Shown: positions 3,815-55,650 of the stretch, one piece after another
Layout: every line of letters starts with the position of its first letter
Position numbering within the stretch: the stretch's first letter is position 1
Assembly (NCBI GenBank): GCA_900317305.1
Contig: ONGG01000004.1
Coordinates: forward strand, 40,983 to 104,982
Direction of reading: 5' to 3'
DNA from: an uncultured Prevotellaceae bacterium
GTDB lineage: Bacteria > Bacteroidota > Bacteroidia > Bacteroidales > Bacteroidaceae
Length of the DNA: 64,000 nt
Notes under the pieces: generated by a model
Told to the model about the DNA's origin: nothing
The model's input: only the letters and a program-made list of their open reading frames with translations
The model's database searches: none
Made by a program: the position numbers and the translations under genes

Positions 3815-5949
3815 CGTATTTGCTTGTATATGAGGTCGATCTTGGTGTATTTGCGCTCTTTCTGGTTGTTCCAGTGCTCAAAGAGTCCAAGAGGTTGCTC
3901 CAGGGGCTTGCCGTCTTGCTTGTAGACGGTGCCGCTGGGGGCATTGGGGATGGAGGCGGCCTCGCGCAGGTACTCGTCGCAGTAGTTCAGGCTGCCGAAT
4001 TCGGGCCACTCACCGATGAGGATGTCCATGCCCACGGCATCGCAGGCCACCTCGTCTTGTGAGACGATGATTGAGCAGGCCCAGTCGCCGTTGAAGGGTT
4101 CTTTCTGCCACTTCGGGGCAGGAGCTCCGTTCACGTCGCGCGACCCGTAGGTGCCGTCGATGAGGAATAGCAGGGTCTTTTGTCCCATGTTCTTGTGGGC
4201 CATGAAGTCGACGAAGGTCTTGTAGCCGGGCTTGCCGTGACGCTTGTCTTGACTCACGTTGTTGTGGGCATTCTGTCGCCAAAGCAGGTTGATGTCGGTG
4301 GCGCCATACCAGTTCTTGCCGGTCAGGGTGACACCCGGTCCCGAATGGGTCTTCAGCAGGGCGCTGTTGATGAGGTAGTCGGCGTCTACGATGCATTTGG
4401 CCAGGCCACGGGCCATCTTGCCGTTCTCTTCCGAGTAGACAATCTGCTCGGGGTAGTACTCGCATTTCTGTCGGCCGTCGCCACCGATGTTGTCGATGAA
4501 CACCACGTTGGGAAACTCGCGGTGTATCTTGTTGTAGATGCTGTCGGTGATGGCACGGCTGGGTTCACAGAGGATGATGTCGCGCTGGCGTATACCGCCC
4601 TCGTTCACCAAGGAGCGCACCAGTGCAAGGGTGAGGAAAGGCGACGAGTTCAACTCTATCGTATCGTGGTGGGTAATGGCGTTGTTCAGGTTGAGTTTCA
4701 CGGCTATCGTCTCGCCTTTCCGGTATCCGCGGTTGCCACGCCCATGGGTCTTGTTGAAGTGCTTGAAGAGGGCTTTCCATGCCTTTTGTGGGGTGGGGGC
4801 TCCAGTGAGTTGCACCACGGCCTCGCGAACCATCGCGTCGGCCTTCGACTGGTCGTTCCATCGGTCTTCCACCCACAGACCGGTCCGGCCGTCCCACTTG
4901 GCTACACCAGGACTGTGTATCCACGCCACACGGCCGGGATGGATGCCACGGCCTACACCGATAGGTTCGTTAGGCCCGACAAACTGTTTGGGTCTGACGG
5001 GGTTGAATTCGCCGAAGAACAACCGGTCACGGTTCACGGCCTCGCTCAGCGGCTGGATGGTGGTAGAGGGACCAAGGTCGGGCGATACCCAGGAGCGGAG
5101 TTGCCACACCACCTTGCCGTCCTTGTCAATCTCCACGGCCTGCACGGGGGCATTGGCGGTGTCCATAGGGGTTTTGTTCCACTCGTTATACCAGTTGTTG
5201 ATGAGATGGTGCCCGTCCTTCAGCCTCACAGTCTTCTGTGGTTGGGTCACGCCATATTCGGTGGTGTTGGTCTGCCATACGGTCTCGCCCATGCGGGTGA
5301 TTTCCTGGATGAGGCCCTTGCGGCCGGTGATGAGCAGGTTGCCTTTGGGCAACTCCTGTGCCGACCAGGGCAGCAGTCCCGTCCAACGGTCCACTTCCTT
5401 GCCATCACAAGTGTATTCGTTCACCATGCCCAGTCCCATGTTGGCCACGAGCAGCGTGCCACGCGAGGTGAGGCGGGCATTCCTGAACTGTCCATGCACG
5501 GAGCCTTTCTCCGAGACGGGCTGCTCAAACTCGCGTACGATTCTTTTCGAAGGTATCTCCATCACCACGGCCTTGGCGGGATGTCCGTTCTGCACAAATA
5601 CCACATGGGTGCGGCCGATGGGCTGGATGGTGTGGATCTCTGTGCCTTCAGGGGCATCGTAGTGCCATACCACCTGGTTGTCCTGGGTCACCTCGGCGAT
5701 GCCGTATTGGTGGGCCATCAGGATATGTCCGTCGGTCATCAGTATGGCGTCGCTGATCTCGCCACGCCATTCTTTGTTCCAGTACGACCATGCCACCTGG
5801 CCGTCCTTGACGATAAACATTCTCATCTGCTTGCTTTGGCCGGCGTAGAAGAAGTCGTGGCGGCCAAGGCTCTCGTCGACTGCCGACTGCGCCATGGCAA
5901 AAATGCTCCACATAAGAAGGGCCAGCAGTGTGTAGATTTGTTTTTTCAT
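3811..5949 (-). CDS. Secreted fusion: N-terminal beta-propeller-like repeat domain + C-terminal DUF362 domain
   Basis: 712 aa; signal peptide; repeated G(x)VVW blades in aa ~25-300; DUF362-like motifs GETIAVKLNLN and DYLINSALLKTHSGPGVTLTGKNWYG. The stop overlaps the GH2 start by 4 nt. Confidence 0.7.
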   Translation of the reverse strand: MKKQIYTLLALLMWSIFAMAQSAVDESLGRHDFFYAGQSKQMRMFIVKDGQVAWSYWNKEWRGEISDAILMTDGHILMAHQYGIAEVTQDNQVVWHYDAPEGTEIHTIQPIGRTHVVFVQNGHPAKAVVMEIPSKRIVREFEQPVSEKGSVHGQFRNARLTSRGTLLVANMGLGMVNEYTCDGKEVDRWTGLLPWSAQELPKGNLLITGRKGLIQEITRMGETVWQTNTTEYGVTQPQKTVRLKDGHHLINNWYNEWNKTPMDTANAPVQAVEIDKDGKVVWQLRSWVSPDLGPSTTIQPLSEAVNRDRLFFGEFNPVRPKQFVGPNEPIGVGRGIHPGRVAWIHSPGVAKWDGRTGLWVEDRWNDQSKADAMVREAVVQLTGAPTPQKAWKALFKHFNKTHGRGNRGYRKGETIAVKLNLNNAITHHDTIELNSSPFLTLALVRSLVNEGGIRQRDIILCEPSRAITDSIYNKIHREFPNVVFIDNIGGDGRQKCEYYPEQIVYSEENGKMARGLAKCIVDADYLINSALLKTHSGPGVTLTGKNWYGATDINLLWRQNAHNNVSQDKRHGKPGYKTFVDFMAHKNMGQKTLLFLIDGTYGSRDVNGAPAPKWQKEPFNGDWACSIIVSQDEVACDAVGMDILIGEWPEFGSLNYCDEYLREAASIPNAPSGTVYKQDGKPLEQPLGLFEHWNNQKERKYTKIDLIYKQIR

Positions 5950-40960: not shown

Positions 40961-41019
40961 ATTATATTGTTCTTTATTGAAGTTTCGCATTCGCTCAACT
41001 TGTGTTGAATTTTTTTTTA

Positions 41020-50920: not shown

Positions 50921-52096
50921 ATGAATAGGAAGAATGCGGCTATATCTGTATTGTTGTTGGTGAGTCTGGGACATCTGTTAAACGATATGTTCCAGGCCGT
51001 AATACCATCAATCTACCCGATGATCAAAGAATCGTTGGGACTGAGTTTCATGCAGATAGGTGCCATCACGCTCACCAATCAGATCACGTCGTCGCTTTTG
51101 CAGCCGGTAGTGGGCTATCTGTCCGACAAGCATCCTCGCCCCTACCGATTGGTCGTAGGCATGTGCTTCACGCTGACCGGACTGTTGCTGCTTTCCGCAG
51201 CAGGCAGTTTCCCGTTGGTGCTGCTGTCTGTCGCCTTTGTGGGTGTCGGTTCCTCGGTGCTTCATCCAGAGTCTTCAAAGGTGGCACGGTTGGCTTCGGG
51301 TGGTGCGAAAGGCATGGCGCAGTCCATATTCCAGATAGGAGGGAATGTCGGACGTGCGCTCGGACCTGTGGCCGTGGCGCTGATTGTAGTGCCTCACGGG
51401 CAAGGCAGCATCCGTTGGTTTGCCGTCCTCGCGTTGCTTGCCGTATGGGTATTGGCAAGAATCGGACGATGGTATAAGAGCCAGATTGAACAATATGTGG
51501 GTGGCAAGTCAAAATTCGATTTGGAGAATGAGAGCCACCTTACACGACGTCAGATCGTCGTCGCCCTGTTGGTGCTGTTGGTGCTGATGTTCTCCAAAGA
51601 CTTCTACACCGCCAATATACAGAACTACTTGACTTTTTATATGATCGACAAGTTCGGACTCAGCGTCACGGCGTCGCAATATGTGCTGTTCGCTTTCCTC
51701 GTTTCCACTGCAGTAGGCTTGCTGGTAGGTGGTGAGGTGGGCGACCGCTACGGACGGAAGTATGTCATCTGGGTGAGCATCCTTGGGTCATCGCCCTTCG
51801 CCCTTCTGCTCCCATATTGCAATCTTACCTGGACTATCGTTCTTGTCATTCTGGTAGGAATGGTGATGTCGTCGGCCATGTCGGCCATCCTTGTCTATGG
51901 CACCGAACTGCTCCCTGGCAATGTGGGCATGATTTCAGGGGCCTTCTTCGGATTGTCGTTCGGACTGGGTGGCATAGGCTCCGCGCTCTTTGGTTGGCTT
52001 GCTGATGTTTCCAGCATTCAGTATGTGTTCCAACTTACGGCTTTCCTTCCATTGCTTGGAATCGTGACCTATTTCCTGCCGAATATAAAAGAATAA
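50921..52096 (+). CDS. MFS transporter, fosmidomycin-resistance (Fsr)-like
   Basis: GHLLND, LQPVVGYLSD, SSVLHPESS, QIGGNVG, VGDRYGRK; about 12 TM helices. Confidence 0.85.
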   Translation: MNRKNAAISVLLLVSLGHLLNDMFQAVIPSIYPMIKESLGLSFMQIGAITLTNQITSSLLQPVVGYLSDKHPRPYRLVVGMCFTLTGLLLLSAAGSFPLVLLSVAFVGVGSSVLHPESSKVARLASGGAKGMAQSIFQIGGNVGRALGPVAVALIVVPHGQGSIRWFAVLALLAVWVLARIGRWYKSQIEQYVGGKSKFDLENESHLTRRQIVVALLVLLVLMFSKDFYTANIQNYLTFYMIDKFGLSVTASQYVLFAFLVSTAVGLLVGGEVGDRYGRKYVIWVSILGSSPFALLLPYCNLTWTIVLVILVGMVMSSAMSAILVYGTELLPGNVGMISGAFFGLSFGLGGIGSALFGWLADVSSIQYVFQLTAFLPLLGIVTYFLPNIKE

Positions 52097-52114: not shown

Positions 52115-52302
52115 TAAAAAATATGCATCTGTTCTCACGAACAAATGCATACCTTATAACTTACTAAAATAAATTAACTCAAAGATGTCGACTCTCTCGA
52201 GGGGACTTGCCTCACAAATGTGAGGTTTAGCGAAAATTATTATTGTCTTTGTCTAAATCGCGTCAATTTTAAGGGTTGTTTTTACAACCATTCTCTTTTT
52301 TA
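52115..52302 (-). ncRNA. Candidate stand-alone small RNA (~190 nt)
   Basis: Full promoter upstream, hairpins at 52274-52289 and 52210-52225, a U-rich stretch, and a terminator at 52123-52150 followed by a U-tract; longest ORF noticed is 12 aa. Confidence 0.6.
52123..52150 (-). terminator. Intrinsic terminator (minus-strand polarity)
   Basis: Minus strand atgcatttgttc-gtga-gaacagatgcat followed by atttttt. Confidence 0.75.
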
Positions 52303-52307
52303 CGTCG

Positions 52308-52339
52308 CAAAGGTATAAAAATTGGCGCACTTTTGCAAA
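52308..52339 (-). promoter_or_regulatory. Full Bacteroidetes promoter TTTG-N20-TACCTTTG with no downstream protein gene
   Basis: -33 at 52336-52339, -7 at 52308-52315 on the minus strand. Confidence 0.72.
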
Positions 52340-52445
52340 TATTGTGCAACTTATTTTTTCTATTTCTGACATTTTGCTGTTGTGCTCGTGCACAGATGCG
52401 AACGCATCAACCAAACGATATAAAAATCGTACATTTCTTGCATTT

Positions 52446-53051
52446 TTATTGCAATTTTTGGTGCATCATTTTGCGCCATTTGACAAAACCGAGGATGGCA
52501 ATCACCACATACAAGCCATAAAGGCCGGCCTTGAAGGGGATGTCTTTGTATATGTAGAGTGCACAGGTCACCACGTCGACTGCTATCCAGATGAGCCATT
52601 GCTCAAGGTATTTCCGGGCAAGGGCCCACATGCCCACAAAACTCAGGGCGGTGGTGAAACTGTCGGCAATGGGGACCGACGAGTCGGTCTGGGTGGCGAG
52701 CAGCCACCAGATGATTCCCCAGATGGCTAGGGTGGCAATGGTCCAGGGCATGATGAGGCTACGCTTGAAATGCGTCACCGGCAGTTCTTTCTTGTCGGAT
52801 GCTGCACCGGCCTTGCCCTTGAGGAATTTCCAGTTCACGAAGCCATATACGGTCATGGCGATGTAGTAGAACTCCATGCCGCAGTCGGCATACAGTCCCT
52901 TGTCGTAGTAGAGCACGATGTCGAGTGCCTGCATCACGAATCCCACCAGCCACAGCCAGACGCTCGCCTTGTATTCCAGCAGGATGTAGGCGAGCCCCAG
53001 CAGTGTGGTGGCGATGTCGAGGAAATGGTCCTCAAGGAATGTGGTGTCCAT
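52446..53051 (-). CDS. pnuC: PnuC-family transporter (thiamine PnuT by context)
   Basis: YADCGMEFYY, DSFTTALS, ARKYLEQWLIWIAVD; downstream of the TPP riboswitch and TBDR. Confidence 0.9.
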   Translation of the reverse strand: MDTTFLEDHFLDIATTLLGLAYILLEYKASVWLWLVGFVMQALDIVLYYDKGLYADCGMEFYYIAMTVYGFVNWKFLKGKAGAASDKKELPVTHFKRSLIMPWTIATLAIWGIIWWLLATQTDSSVPIADSFTTALSFVGMWALARKYLEQWLIWIAVDVVTCALYIYKDIPFKAGLYGLYVVIAILGFVKWRKMMHQKLQ

Positions 53052-53057
53052 AGCGGC

Positions 53058-55436
53058 CTACCATCTAAGGGTGACATTGGCCATACTGGTGAAGCCGGCC
53101 ATGGGGATGAAGCCTATCTGGTAGTAGCGGTTGTCGTTGCCATGGCCGTAGCTCTCGCAGATGGCGGAGTAGACCCAGCCGCTGCCAGCATAACGGCGGT
53201 TGAACACATTGTTGAAGTTCAGGCCGATGGTCACTTCTTTCAAGCCAATGGCCTTGCTTACCTTCGACGTGTAGCTCAGGTTTAGGCTCGAGGTGCTGTA
53301 GCAGGGCAGCGAGCGGTCGTTGTTCTCGGTGTTGTCGAGATACTGGCGGCTCACGAAGTTGGTGTGCCATACGGCCTGGAACCCTTTCTTGTGCAGGGTG
53401 ATGAATCCGTTGAGGATGGCCGAGGGCGAGAAGGCGAGGGTAGAGTTGTCGTAGTGTATCGTCTGGCTGCCATTGTCCCAGTCTTCCACCACCTCGTCGA
53501 AGTCCTTGACCTTGTTCTTGCTTAGGGCAGCGTTGCCCTCGATGCTCAGCCATGAGGTGGGGGCGTAGCCGGCACTCAATTCCACACCCATGCGGTAGGA
53601 GTCCTTGATGTTCGTGGTCAGGTTCTCGCCGATGTCGCTCACCTCTCCGGTCTGCACAAACTGGTCGGTATAGTCCATATAGTAAAGGTTGAGGCCGGCA
53701 TGCCAGCGCTCGCCGGTATAACTGTAGCCTGCCTCGAAGTCGAGCAGTTTCTCTGCTTTGGGGGCAGGGTAGCTGCCATTGTCGGTGAAGTTGTTGCGCT
53801 CCGGTTCCCTGTTGCTCGTGGCCACCGAGAAATAGGCATGGTGGTTGTCGGTCTTGTAGCTCACGCCGCCCTTCAGGTTAACGAAGTCATAGGTCTTGTC
53901 GATGTCGAGACGCTGGTTGGTGTAGGTGCCGTCCTCATTCTCGTAGAATTTGTCGTTGATGCCGTCGGTGGTGTAACCCACATGGCGGTATTGGGCGTCA
54001 CCAAAAAGGCTGAGGTAGGGGGTGATCTTGAACGCTGCCTTCACGTAGCCGCTATAGTCGTTTTTCTCGGCGTCCGAATCATAATAGGTGTATTTGCCAC
54101 CCGAGAGCAACTTGCGGCTCAGTTCGGGATGGGCGATGTAGGTGAGGTGGCCGAAGTGGTTGCCCTTGAAGCGCTGCAGCGACGTGCCGCCCATGACGTC
54201 CCACCGGTCGGCGGTGTAGTTGGCGTTCCACACCAGACCGTAGGTGTCTTGCTCCAGGCCTTTCTTGCGGATGAAGTCGGTGCGTTTCACGGTCTTCCCA
54301 TCGCTGGCAGTGAAGTTGGCCAGTCCGAATTTCTTCAGTTTGTTGTTGTATCTGAACTCATTATAGTAGCCGTAGCCATGGGTGTAGTGCAGCGAGGCCG
54401 TCGTATTCAGGTGTTGGCTCACCTCCCAGGTGAACGAGAGGAAGTTGTGGCTCTGCCAGAAATTGTCGGTGGCCTGGCGCCAAAGGCTGCCGTCGGCCAG
54501 GCGGTAGCGCTCGGTCAGGTAGTGGCCATCGGCATTGCGGGCGAAGTCGCCGTCGGCGTTGTAGACCATGGTCTCATAGAGGGTGTTGTATTTCCCCAGT
54601 CCGGCCTCATACATGTCCTTGTAGGTGCGGATGCCGGTCTTGGCGCCATAGGTGCCGTCCATAATCGAGAGGTCGTTGTCGCCGGCCGTCACGCCATTCC
54701 ATGCCTGGCCGGTCTTCTCGAAGTTGCCGAAGTTCTTGTATTGGATGCTGAACTTGTCAGTCAGGTAGCGCAGGCCCCCGAAATAACTGCCCGAACGGCC
54801 ACCCGTGCCATGGATATAGCCGTCGGTATTGGTCTCGTGGTAGGCGCCTTCTATCACCATATGGTTCCACAGCACACCCGTGCTGAAACTGCCACCCACG
54901 TTGTAGGTGTTGTACGACCCGTAACTGGCACTCAGTTCGGCAGACGGGGTGAGCGAAGCCGCTTTCGACGATAGCGAGATGCTGCCGCCAAAGGCACCGT
55001 CGCCGTTAGTCGACGAGCCTACGCCTCGTTGTATCTGCACGTTGCCCAGCAGCGAGGAGTAACTGTTCATGTTGGCCCAGAACACGCATTGGTCCTCGGG
55101 CGAGTTGAGGGGCACACCGTCGAGAGTCACGTTGATGCGCGAGTCTCCGGCACCGCGGATGCGCATGTAGGTGGTTCCGGTGCCCAGGCCGTTCTCGCTC
55201 CAAGCCAGCACGCCTGGGGTTTGGGTGAAGAGGAAAGGCAGTTCCTTGCCGGTCTTCGAGAATTCCTGCAGTTGGGCTTTCTTGATTTGCGACGTGGCGT
55301 ATGGAGCCCCTTGCTGGCCGCGCACGCCTTTCACCACTACTTCGGTGAGTTCCTCCAGACGCAATGAGTCGGGAGTCTGTGCCATCATGGGTGCCGTCAT
55401 CGACAGTATGGCACAAGTGAAAACGAATCTTTTCAT
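53058..55436 (-). CDS. TonB-dependent receptor, thiamine uptake by context
   Basis: LTEVVVKG, RIRGAG..RINVTLDGVPLN, VQIQRGVGSSTNGDGAFGG; C-terminal W; controlled by a TPP riboswitch. Confidence 0.9.
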   Translation of the reverse strand: MKRFVFTCAILSMTAPMMAQTPDSLRLEELTEVVVKGVRGQQGAPYATSQIKKAQLQEFSKTGKELPFLFTQTPGVLAWSENGLGTGTTYMRIRGAGDSRINVTLDGVPLNSPEDQCVFWANMNSYSSLLGNVQIQRGVGSSTNGDGAFGGSISLSSKAASLTPSAELSASYGSYNTYNVGGSFSTGVLWNHMVIEGAYHETNTDGYIHGTGGRSGSYFGGLRYLTDKFSIQYKNFGNFEKTGQAWNGVTAGDNDLSIMDGTYGAKTGIRTYKDMYEAGLGKYNTLYETMVYNADGDFARNADGHYLTERYRLADGSLWRQATDNFWQSHNFLSFTWEVSQHLNTTASLHYTHGYGYYNEFRYNNKLKKFGLANFTASDGKTVKRTDFIRKKGLEQDTYGLVWNANYTADRWDVMGGTSLQRFKGNHFGHLTYIAHPELSRKLLSGGKYTYYDSDAEKNDYSGYVKAAFKITPYLSLFGDAQYRHVGYTTDGINDKFYENEDGTYTNQRLDIDKTYDFVNLKGGVSYKTDNHHAYFSVATSNREPERNNFTDNGSYPAPKAEKLLDFEAGYSYTGERWHAGLNLYYMDYTDQFVQTGEVSDIGENLTTNIKDSYRMGVELSAGYAPTSWLSIEGNAALSKNKVKDFDEVVEDWDNGSQTIHYDNSTLAFSPSAILNGFITLHKKGFQAVWHTNFVSRQYLDNTENNDRSLPCYSTSSLNLSYTSKVSKAIGLKEVTIGLNFNNVFNRRYAGSGWVYSAICESYGHGNDNRYYQIGFIPMAGFTSMANVTLRW

Positions 55437-55481
55437 TTTACCTTATATAAAATATACGATAAGGGGAGAGGAGAAGATAAG

Positions 55482-55553
55482 TATCCCTACGCCGGCATTA
55501 TCCGGATCAGGTATGAGGGTATGATCTCAGCCCGAAACATCGGGCACCCCTTA
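55482..55553 (-). promoter_or_regulatory. TPP riboswitch aptamer
   Basis: Minus strand AAGGGGTGCCCGATGTTTCGGGCTGAGATCATACCCTCATACCTGATCCGGATAATGCCGGCGTAGGGAT contains the CTGAGA, TACCC, ACCTGA and GATAAT-GCGTAGG hallmarks; -7 box TAATTTTG at 55576-55583. Confidence 0.96.
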
Positions 55554-55650
55554 GCCTACATTCTGTAGGCCGCTGCAAAATTACGTTTTTTTTCGCGAAT
55601 ACAAGCATCCTTGGCCTTTTTTTCGCGTTTTCGGGCCTTCAAAGAAAAAA

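Follow-up and report, generated by a model that had tools for sequence, protein, structure and literature searches.

In enterobacteria, the small RNAs (sRNAs) MicL and DapZ are embedded in the 3' untranslated region (3'UTR) of an mRNA and have a promoter of their own. Such sRNAs are Hfq-dependent, and the Bacteroidota do not have Hfq. The Prevotella-2 RNA motif (Rfam RF03043) is a candidate sRNA. In Bacteroides, the seed-sharing paralogous sRNAs GibS and FopS repress susC-like mRNAs at the start codon; they bind A-rich translation initiation regions of their target mRNAs and are modulated by RbpB, a protein that binds single-stranded regions of sRNAs (PMC11697453). ScnR125 of Segatella copri was detected by northern blot and classed as 3'-derived (El Mouali et al., 2024, bioRxiv 10.1101/2024.04.05.588293). 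A review of October 2026 lists SrcF as the sole functionally characterised sRNA of Prevotella/Segatella (PMC13750123).

Here, we describe a locus in a 64,000-nt stretch of DNA (the window) from an uncultured Prevotellaceae bacterium. Judged by its sequence, it is a real and conserved non-coding sRNA gene that lies outside every Rfam family. At this level, it has the general make-up of such genes, i.e., an own promoter and a Rho-independent terminator around a short non-coding transcript. With somewhat more than even confidence, we consider it a conserved Prevotella gene for an sRNA of ~188 nt in the 3' region of a thiamine-uptake operon, and the product most likely a riboregulator that acts in trans with an unpaired tract as its seed.

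Anatomy and genomic setting

The features of the locus are collected in Table 1. A promoter had been proposed on the minus strand at 52339-52308 in a first-pass annotation, and it was found there: the -33 element and the -7 box are 20 nt apart and constitute a full Bacteroidota -33/-7 promoter. The pattern TTTG-N19-21-TAnnTTTG occurs six times in the window vs. 0.26 expected, and six or more occurrences were found in none of 100 shuffles. A sigma-70-based scan detected neither promoter nor terminator; Bacteroidota promoters fall outside its consensus, and the terminator hairpin was missed because of the loop and stem rules of the scan.

From 5' to 3', the RNA consists of a variable hairpin (H1), an unpaired block with AAUUUUCGC, two conserved hairpins (H2 and H3), the second of which is capped by CUCGNGAG, the tract (CU)UUGAGUUAAUUUAUUUUAGUAAGU, and the terminator. 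H1 and H2 are located where they had been annotated, but H3 had been overlooked. Similarly, the terminator is indeed a hairpin followed by six U in minus-strand polarity, but its stem, which is preceded by an A-tract, measures 14 and not 12 bp; and the A/U-rich tract is present, but its important part begins further 5' than had been quoted, at CUUUGAGUUAAUUU (52184). A 191-nt RNA folds with -50.8 kcal/mol (z = -5.2), with equally good folds in none of 200 shuffles, and the core UUGAGUUAAUUU of the tract is predicted to be unpaired in the fold. An intramolecular pairing of CGCUAAA with UUUAGU was considered and rejected, as it is not kept in sequences of the S. paludivivens type. A 6S-like RNA was rejected as well, since the rod-like fold is absent.

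Table 1. Features at the sRNA locus and in the upstream operon (window coordinates).
Feature	Position	Strand	Basis or remark
TPP riboswitch	55561-55467	-	Rfam RF00059, 69.1 bits
TonB-dependent receptor	55436-53058	-	Pfam TonB_dep_Rec/Plug
PnuC-family transporter	53051-52446	-	Pfam NMN_transporter
Riboswitch-receptor-PnuC operon upstream of the sRNA	52446..55561	-	Strand of the sRNA
Spacer from pnuC stop codon to sRNA promoter, 106 nt	52340..52445	-	Two 5-bp hairpins, no U-tract, z = 0.38
-33 element TTTG of Bacteroidota-type promoter	52336..52339	-	Sequence
-7 box TACCTTTG (TAnnTTTG)	52308..52315	-	Sequence
Predicted sRNA transcript, ~188 nt	52115..52302	-	5' end predicted from promoter, 3' end from U-tract
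5' hairpin H1, GGUUGU-AAAA-ACAACC	52274..52289	-	Overlaps small ORF 52291-52253
Conserved unpaired block AGACAAUAAUAAUUUUCGCUAAA	52226..52248	-	70-90% column conservation in 34 sequences
Hairpin H2, CCUCAC-AUUU-GUGAGG	52210..52225	-	Paired in 100% of 15 sequences
Hairpin H3, GUC-CC-CUC-GAGA-GAG-UC-GAC, GNRA loop	52187..52206	-	100% paired
Unpaired A/U-rich tract AUCUUUGAGUUAAUUUAUUUUAGUAAGUUAUA	52155..52186	-	Proposed seed/binding region
Invariant core UUGAGUUAAUUU of unpaired tract	52182-52171	-	At least 97% conserved in 34 pnuC-linked sequences
Intrinsic terminator: 14-bp stem with one U.G and GUGA loop (52151-52122), U6 tract (52121-52116)	52115..52151	-	Sequence and fold

The riboswitch, the TonB-dependent receptor gene and pnuC follow each other in an order that we take to be that of the Bacteroidota thiamine-uptake operon. 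An intrinsic terminator was sought in the spacer between pnuC and the sRNA promoter (52340-52445) and is absent. In 31 of the 42 loci collected (designated L; genomes are designated G), the RNA shares the strand of the receptor-PnuC operon and is found 85-250 nt past it, with dnaA as the gene that it mostly faces, and 26 of 29 loci show no terminator-like site in the interval between pnuC and the RNA, the sites flagged in the other three being weak or doubtful. Since pnuC is not followed by a terminator, the RNA probably also forms the 3' end of the thiamine-uptake operon. Like an sRNA embedded in a 3'UTR, it is situated on the same strand as and directly past a coding sequence, from which no terminator separates it. 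It resembles MicL and DapZ in its location at the 3' end of an operon, in having the terminator in common with this operon, and in the presence of an own promoter; dual biogenesis is therefore possible. However, the promoter is located after the stop codon here, whereas it is inside the coding sequence in the MicL/DapZ type. Transcription would be driven by the own promoter, which is of the sigma-ABfr type, and delimited by the strong intrinsic terminator; besides, because no terminator separates pnuC from the sRNA, the RNA is probably also produced from the operon transcript, via read-through or processing. The latter route would tie the sRNA level to the thiamine status of the cell. The earlier view of an independent regulatory sRNA is supported by the promoter box and terminator present in the homologues and by the covariation of the helices (see below), but the gene cannot be considered fully independent of pnuC.

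The convergent neighbor in the window is an MFS gene, which ends at 52096 and is preceded by dnaA. This gene is inserted between the sRNA gene and dnaA only in the window and in its closest relative, the rumen metagenome-assembled genome (MAG) RUG602, whose PnuC is 92% identical. An antisense effect on the convergent MFS mRNA had been put forward in the first-pass annotation; it would be exerted via overlapping 3' ends. The stop codon of the MFS gene is ~19 nt away from the 3' end of the RNA and the terminator is a weak one when read in the plus orientation, so that an MFS read-through transcript would be fully complementary to the RNA. Since the MFS gene occupies this position in two loci only, with dnaA or something else in the others, the conserved features of the RNA cannot have evolved for it, and regulation of the neighbor in this way is hardly conceivable. 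A riboswitch or 5' leader was rejected, because the next gene, MFS in the window and dnaA elsewhere, is convergent.

A convergent arrangement of pnuC and dnaA is found throughout the genus, even where the sRNA is lacking (L028-L031, L003, L011, L024), and the synteny with pnuC could be mere vertical inheritance at a stable dnaA-pnuC junction. In many Prevotella without the RNA, including the S. copri complex and G017, pnuC ends in a plain terminator facing dnaA; G017 is the species with the closest PnuC, and yet it lacks the RNA. As the RNA is absent from many Prevotella, its distribution is patchy.

The element might be considered a cis-acting 3' end that mainly terminates and stabilizes the receptor-pnuC mRNA, possibly also as a bidirectional terminator that serves the convergent gene, with the promoter-like box being irrelevant. 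The scarcity of other terminators between pnuC and the hairpin (none in 26 of the 29 loci), the conserved position after pnuC, and the stem flanked by an A-tract and a U-tract are consistent with such a role. As the whole explanation, however, it is improbable: 130 nt of covarying upstream structure and an invariant unpaired 12-mer are superfluous for a mere terminator; the full TAnnTTTG box is kept at a fixed distance by every homologue whose upstream sequence is available; siblings that share the tract reside at unrelated loci; and the plain pnuC terminators of many Prevotella, those of the S. copri complex included, do without such an element. Moreover, at one locus (L074, CAMNIN010000017.1), the sRNA gene has the opposite orientation to the operon; it lies ~400-500 nt upstream of, and divergent from, the receptor gene and is still intact there, with own promoter and terminator.

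A separate, conserved hairpin-like element was observed after the pnuC stop codon, in the window at ~52375-52405 of the minus strand, with counterparts in L004, L006, L016, L100, L101-L103, and L068. It reads UGUGC-N-GCACA or GUGUACGCACAC/GUGUGCGUACAC, followed by A(A/U)UGUUA but not by a U-tract, and is located ~90-100 nt upstream of the -7 box of the sRNA. It could be a 3'-end or processing signal of the mRNA or a binding site for a regulator.

Distribution, conservation and covariation

Homologues of the RNA were found in ~30 species of Prevotella/Segatella by BLAST, a covariance model and an exact-pattern scan. A first BLAST search in 60 relatives yielded no match, because the carriers are patchily distributed, and neither did a search of a plasmid collection. 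In contrast to the first search, loci collected via PnuC and a BLAST search of 400 genomes revealed homologues at 75-94% identity. The exact 22-mer TTGAGTTAATTTATTT(T)AGTAA was found among 185,579 species genomes in 22 Prevotella/Prevotellaceae records, besides three chance matches; the carriers include Segatella albensis, S. paludivivens, Prevotella sp. DNF00663, and many rumen MAGs. The covariance model R1, which was built from a curated alignment of 15 sequences and whose E-values are rough, matched 34 of 401 genomes of the genus, revealing two more distant groups, B and C, and gave no match in any other of 35 genera of the family. The pnuC-linked type is present in ~25 genomes of the genus. 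These searches indicate that the gene is specific to the genus Prevotella in the GTDB sense, which includes Segatella.

The core of the RNA is 84-98% identical at the nucleotide level vs. 68-92% for pnuC, the receptor gene and dnaA. Across 34 sequences, conservation peaks in the unpaired UUGAGUUAAUUU, in agreement with the earlier suggestion that the A/U-rich unpaired tract is the functional region. Within the U-runs of the tract, 1-nt indels are found (UUUAUUUUAG, UUUAUUUAG or UUUAGUUUUAG), which excludes coding there. All 23 homologues for which the upstream sequence is available have a TAnnTTTG box, which precedes the tract by 89-138 nt; such a box is present in the more distant groups B and C, too. 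In the 43-sequence alignment, all members end in a GNRA-capped terminator. H1 is the variable part and is replaced by unrelated hairpins or by nothing in L037, L071, L074, L080, L038, and L042. The unpaired block between H1 and H2 ends in AAUUUUCGCUAAA, and its AAUUUUCGC recurs in groups A and B; the block is possibly a second contact region. The apical CUCGNGAG of H3 is nearly invariant, and the apical module of this hairpin is present also in groups B and C and in the Rfam motif Prevotella-2. Many promoters of group A (L033-L037, L065, L071, L080, L085), but not that of the window, have (A)GTGATAGAT(T/A) directly upstream of the -33 element, which may be a binding site for a regulator.

All three helices show covariation. 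In the curated set of 15 sequences, the three-helix structure has 94.6% of its cells paired, with compensatory changes in 10 of 25 pairs; none of 500 shuffles did as well, and none of the slid registers came close. In a model-fitted alignment of 43 sequences, which itself leans towards the structure, 23 of the 25 pairs covary. For H2, these figures are two pairs with compensatory changes in the 15 sequences and five of six covarying pairs in the 43; the basal pair of H3 occurs as G-C, G-U and A-U in the 15 sequences; and all 13 pairs of the terminator covary in the 43. MAFFT and RNAalifold recovered the terminator only in part from a mixed set because of misalignment, which was solved by using the curated subset and the covariance model.

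A small open reading frame (ORF) of 12 codons had been spotted from ATG 52291 to TAG 52253 (MVVKTTLKIDAI), and it is present. It might be translated, which would make the transcript a micropeptide mRNA or a dual-function RNA. ATG ORFs beginning with M(V/I)VK(T/S/N)(T/P)L(K/N) are found in eight close relatives, and L065 has kept the ORF whilst the overlapping hairpin is degraded. However, the ORF is limited to a sub-clade, being missing, or replaced by unrelated short ORFs, in L037, L071, L085, L080, L074, L038, and throughout groups B-D. The stretch of the RNA that the ORF overlaps is the least conserved one, the C-terminal part of the ORF occurs in two frames (IDAI* vs. ...SDLDKDNNNFR*), and all six changes observed in the first eight codons are non-synonymous. 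Neither in-frame conservation nor purifying selection, as expected of a small protein, was found for the ORF at 52291-52253, which is unlikely to be coding; a function of the locus via a micropeptide, one of the alternatives in the first-pass annotation, can be given very little credence.

A sibling sRNA, Prevotella-2 and ScnR125

A comparison with Rfam had been recommended, as had the searches for conservation and covariation described above. At gathering score, Rfam 15 gave the TPP riboswitch (55561-55467) as its sole match in the window and none on the sRNA; in a local search of the sRNA up to E = 10, only chance-level matches with E ≥ 0.9 were obtained. One family in this search deserves comment, i.e., RF03043 (Prevotella-2), which scored 20.4 bits (E = 3.2) over model positions 66-96, corresponding to the terminator hairpin only; membership is set by a gathering threshold of 72.1 bits over the whole 116-position model, of which the window RNA falls short.

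Genuine Prevotella-2 copies (77-90 bits) are present in three genomes (G068, G243, G292) that also carry the pnuC-linked RNA, at other loci; they consist of a CUCGUGAGGG hairpin, UUGAGUUAAC and a GUCGUGAGAC terminator. The Prevotella-2 motif resembles the window RNA in its succession of a hairpin, a GCUCGUGAGGG-capped hairpin, an unpaired AAAGUUGAGUUAACUU and a GUCGUGAGAC terminator, and in its confinement to Prevotella, but its tract departs from that of the window RNA after UUGAGUUAA.

A second sRNA gene was found in the genome to which the window belongs (G000), on contig C9 at ~5590-5700 of the minus strand, and likewise at locus L123 (~1090-1240 of the minus strand). This sibling, group D, consists of a TAATTTTG box, a small CUAAUC/GAUUAG hairpin, an invariant AUUAGUUUUUUUAGUGGUUAAUUUAGUUUUAGUAAGUAU and a GNRA terminator, and its tract GUUAAUUUAGUUUUAGUAAGU almost equals that of the window RNA. 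Rfam gave no match on the sibling locus. A 21-mer of the sibling is present in 69 of the 401 genomes of the genus, with no matches for a reversed control pattern, and ~38 nt of the sibling are invariant across very distant species. An exact search with the 21-mer locates contig C9 but not the window locus: of AUUAGUUUUUUUAGUGGUUAAUUUAGUUUUAGUAAGUAU, only the 3' 20 nt are matched by the window RNA, with a 1-nt deletion, and the 5' half is missing.

In genomes of the S. copri complex, the reverse primer of the ScnR125 riboprobe matches the terminator of the sibling, and in two of them both ScnR125 primers match, 418-419 nt apart. Based on these matches, the sibling lies in the ScnR125 probe region of the S. 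copri complex, as the 3' part thereof. Its internal box at the ScnR125 locus of S. copri is TATCTTTG. Like the window RNA, the sibling in the ScnR125 region is located at the 3' end of an upstream gene, is preceded by a TAnnTTTG promoter of its own, and has a 5' hairpin that varies as well as an A/U-rich unpaired tract adjoining a GNRA-capped terminator. The tracts are nearly identical (GAGUUAAUUUA-UUUUAGUAAGU in the window RNA vs. GUGGUUAAUUUAGUUUUAGUAAGU in the sibling). Unlike the window RNA, the sibling is located away from pnuC, lacks H2, H3 and the AAUUUUCGC block, and possesses an additional invariant 5' half, AUUAGUUUUUUUAGUGG. It is also far more widespread, being found in 69 of the 401 genomes of the genus vs. 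~25 for the pnuC-linked type. The sibling, together with the layout and tract of Prevotella-2, therefore identifies the window RNA, by its sequence, as belonging to a group of Prevotella sRNAs with a common seed.

The unpaired tract as a putative seed

The sRNA most likely base-pairs in trans, with the invariant tract as its seed, which would be common to the RNA and at least one sibling in the same genome. A conserved single-stranded stretch suited to this role is provided by UUGAGUUAAUUU, which was traced in 34 sequences and recurs in the siblings. By analogy, the pairing may resemble that of GibS and FopS at A-rich translation initiation regions. The window RNA and GibS/FopS of B. thetaiotaomicron are alike as Bacteroidota sRNAs from an Hfq-less phylum, with canonical sigma-ABfr promoters, a single-stranded seed common to the paralogues and a Rho-independent terminator. 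In contrast, there is no similarity in sequence or model; the seed of FopS is located at the 5' end, whereas the proposed seed of the window RNA directly precedes the terminator; and FopS is present in 14 copies per genome vs. one to three for the window RNA.

Extended complements of the tract were sought in the genome, and none was found besides the antisense strand of the gene itself. Exact k-mer complements in the genome were restricted to this antisense strand, AT-rich chance matches and the margin of a repeat element. When duplex energies were computed against 4,654 crude translation-start windows of one genome, nothing outstanding emerged, and the genome-wide RNAduplex output was dominated by gappy GC-rich artefacts. 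The receptor gene, pnuC, dnaA and the MFS gene are at the 11th to 93rd percentile of the duplex energies and, hence, are not predicted targets. The best contiguous pairing, 15 bp upstream of a gene for a putative glycerophosphotransferase, belongs to an AT-rich locus and may be a compositional chance match.

The repeat element is a multi-copy intergenic repeat, which is found in the window at 40982-40999 of the minus strand, at L154 and at more than 30 other sites in G000. In this genome, GTTGAGCGAATGCGAAACTTCAA occurs ~34 times and AGTTCAGAAGTT ~99 times, and long forms of the repeat include a large inverted repeat. Some copies start just past a stop codon with (AAT)TAACTCAAC, which is complementary to UUGAGUUA(AUU) of the sRNA core, and three of the four complements of at least 11 nt to this core in the genome fall in the repeat. 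Rfam gave no match on it.

Invariance over 20-38 nt exceeds that of a typical seed and would fit a protein-binding platform, too. The RAGU repeats of the tract and the CUCGNGAG loop might bind, titrate or recruit an RNA-binding protein, for which an RRM-type Rbp, a KH protein and ribosomal protein S1 are candidates. RAGU motifs (GAGU, UAGU, AAGU) recur every 4-6 nt in the tract, and the sibling has four to five UAGU; the invariance, which spans 20 nt in the window RNA and ~38 nt in the sibling, extends across species in which PnuC is only ~50% identical; the searches for complementarity yielded no target; and RbpB of Bacteroides does bind single-stranded sRNA regions (PMC11697453). However, no binding motif is known for any RNA-binding protein of Prevotella, classic sponges have many sites whereas there are one to three genes per genome here, and a conserved unpaired tract adjoining the terminator is the standard layout of a base-pairing sRNA. 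A role as sponge or platform is therefore considered unlikely, and base-pairing in trans remains the preferred reading.

A broader proposal, made tentatively and more doubtful than not, is that the pnuC-linked, ScnR125-like and Prevotella-2 RNAs use the GUUAAUUU tract to steer a common core regulon or to dock a protein that substitutes for Hfq; the member in the window would then feed the thiamine status into this system.

In the rumen and in the gut of non-westernised humans, Prevotella and Segatella predominate. The locus described here defines an sRNA family that is structured and covaries, has an invariant unpaired tract and occupies a fixed site behind the thiamine-uptake operon, with one or more siblings in each genome; the R1 model could seed a corresponding Rfam family. 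It ties together Prevotella-2 of Rfam and ScnR125, which were unconnected so far, and offers a concrete entry into post-transcriptional control in a genus without Hfq. Furthermore, it suggests a possible link between the supply of vitamin B1 and a wider regulon.
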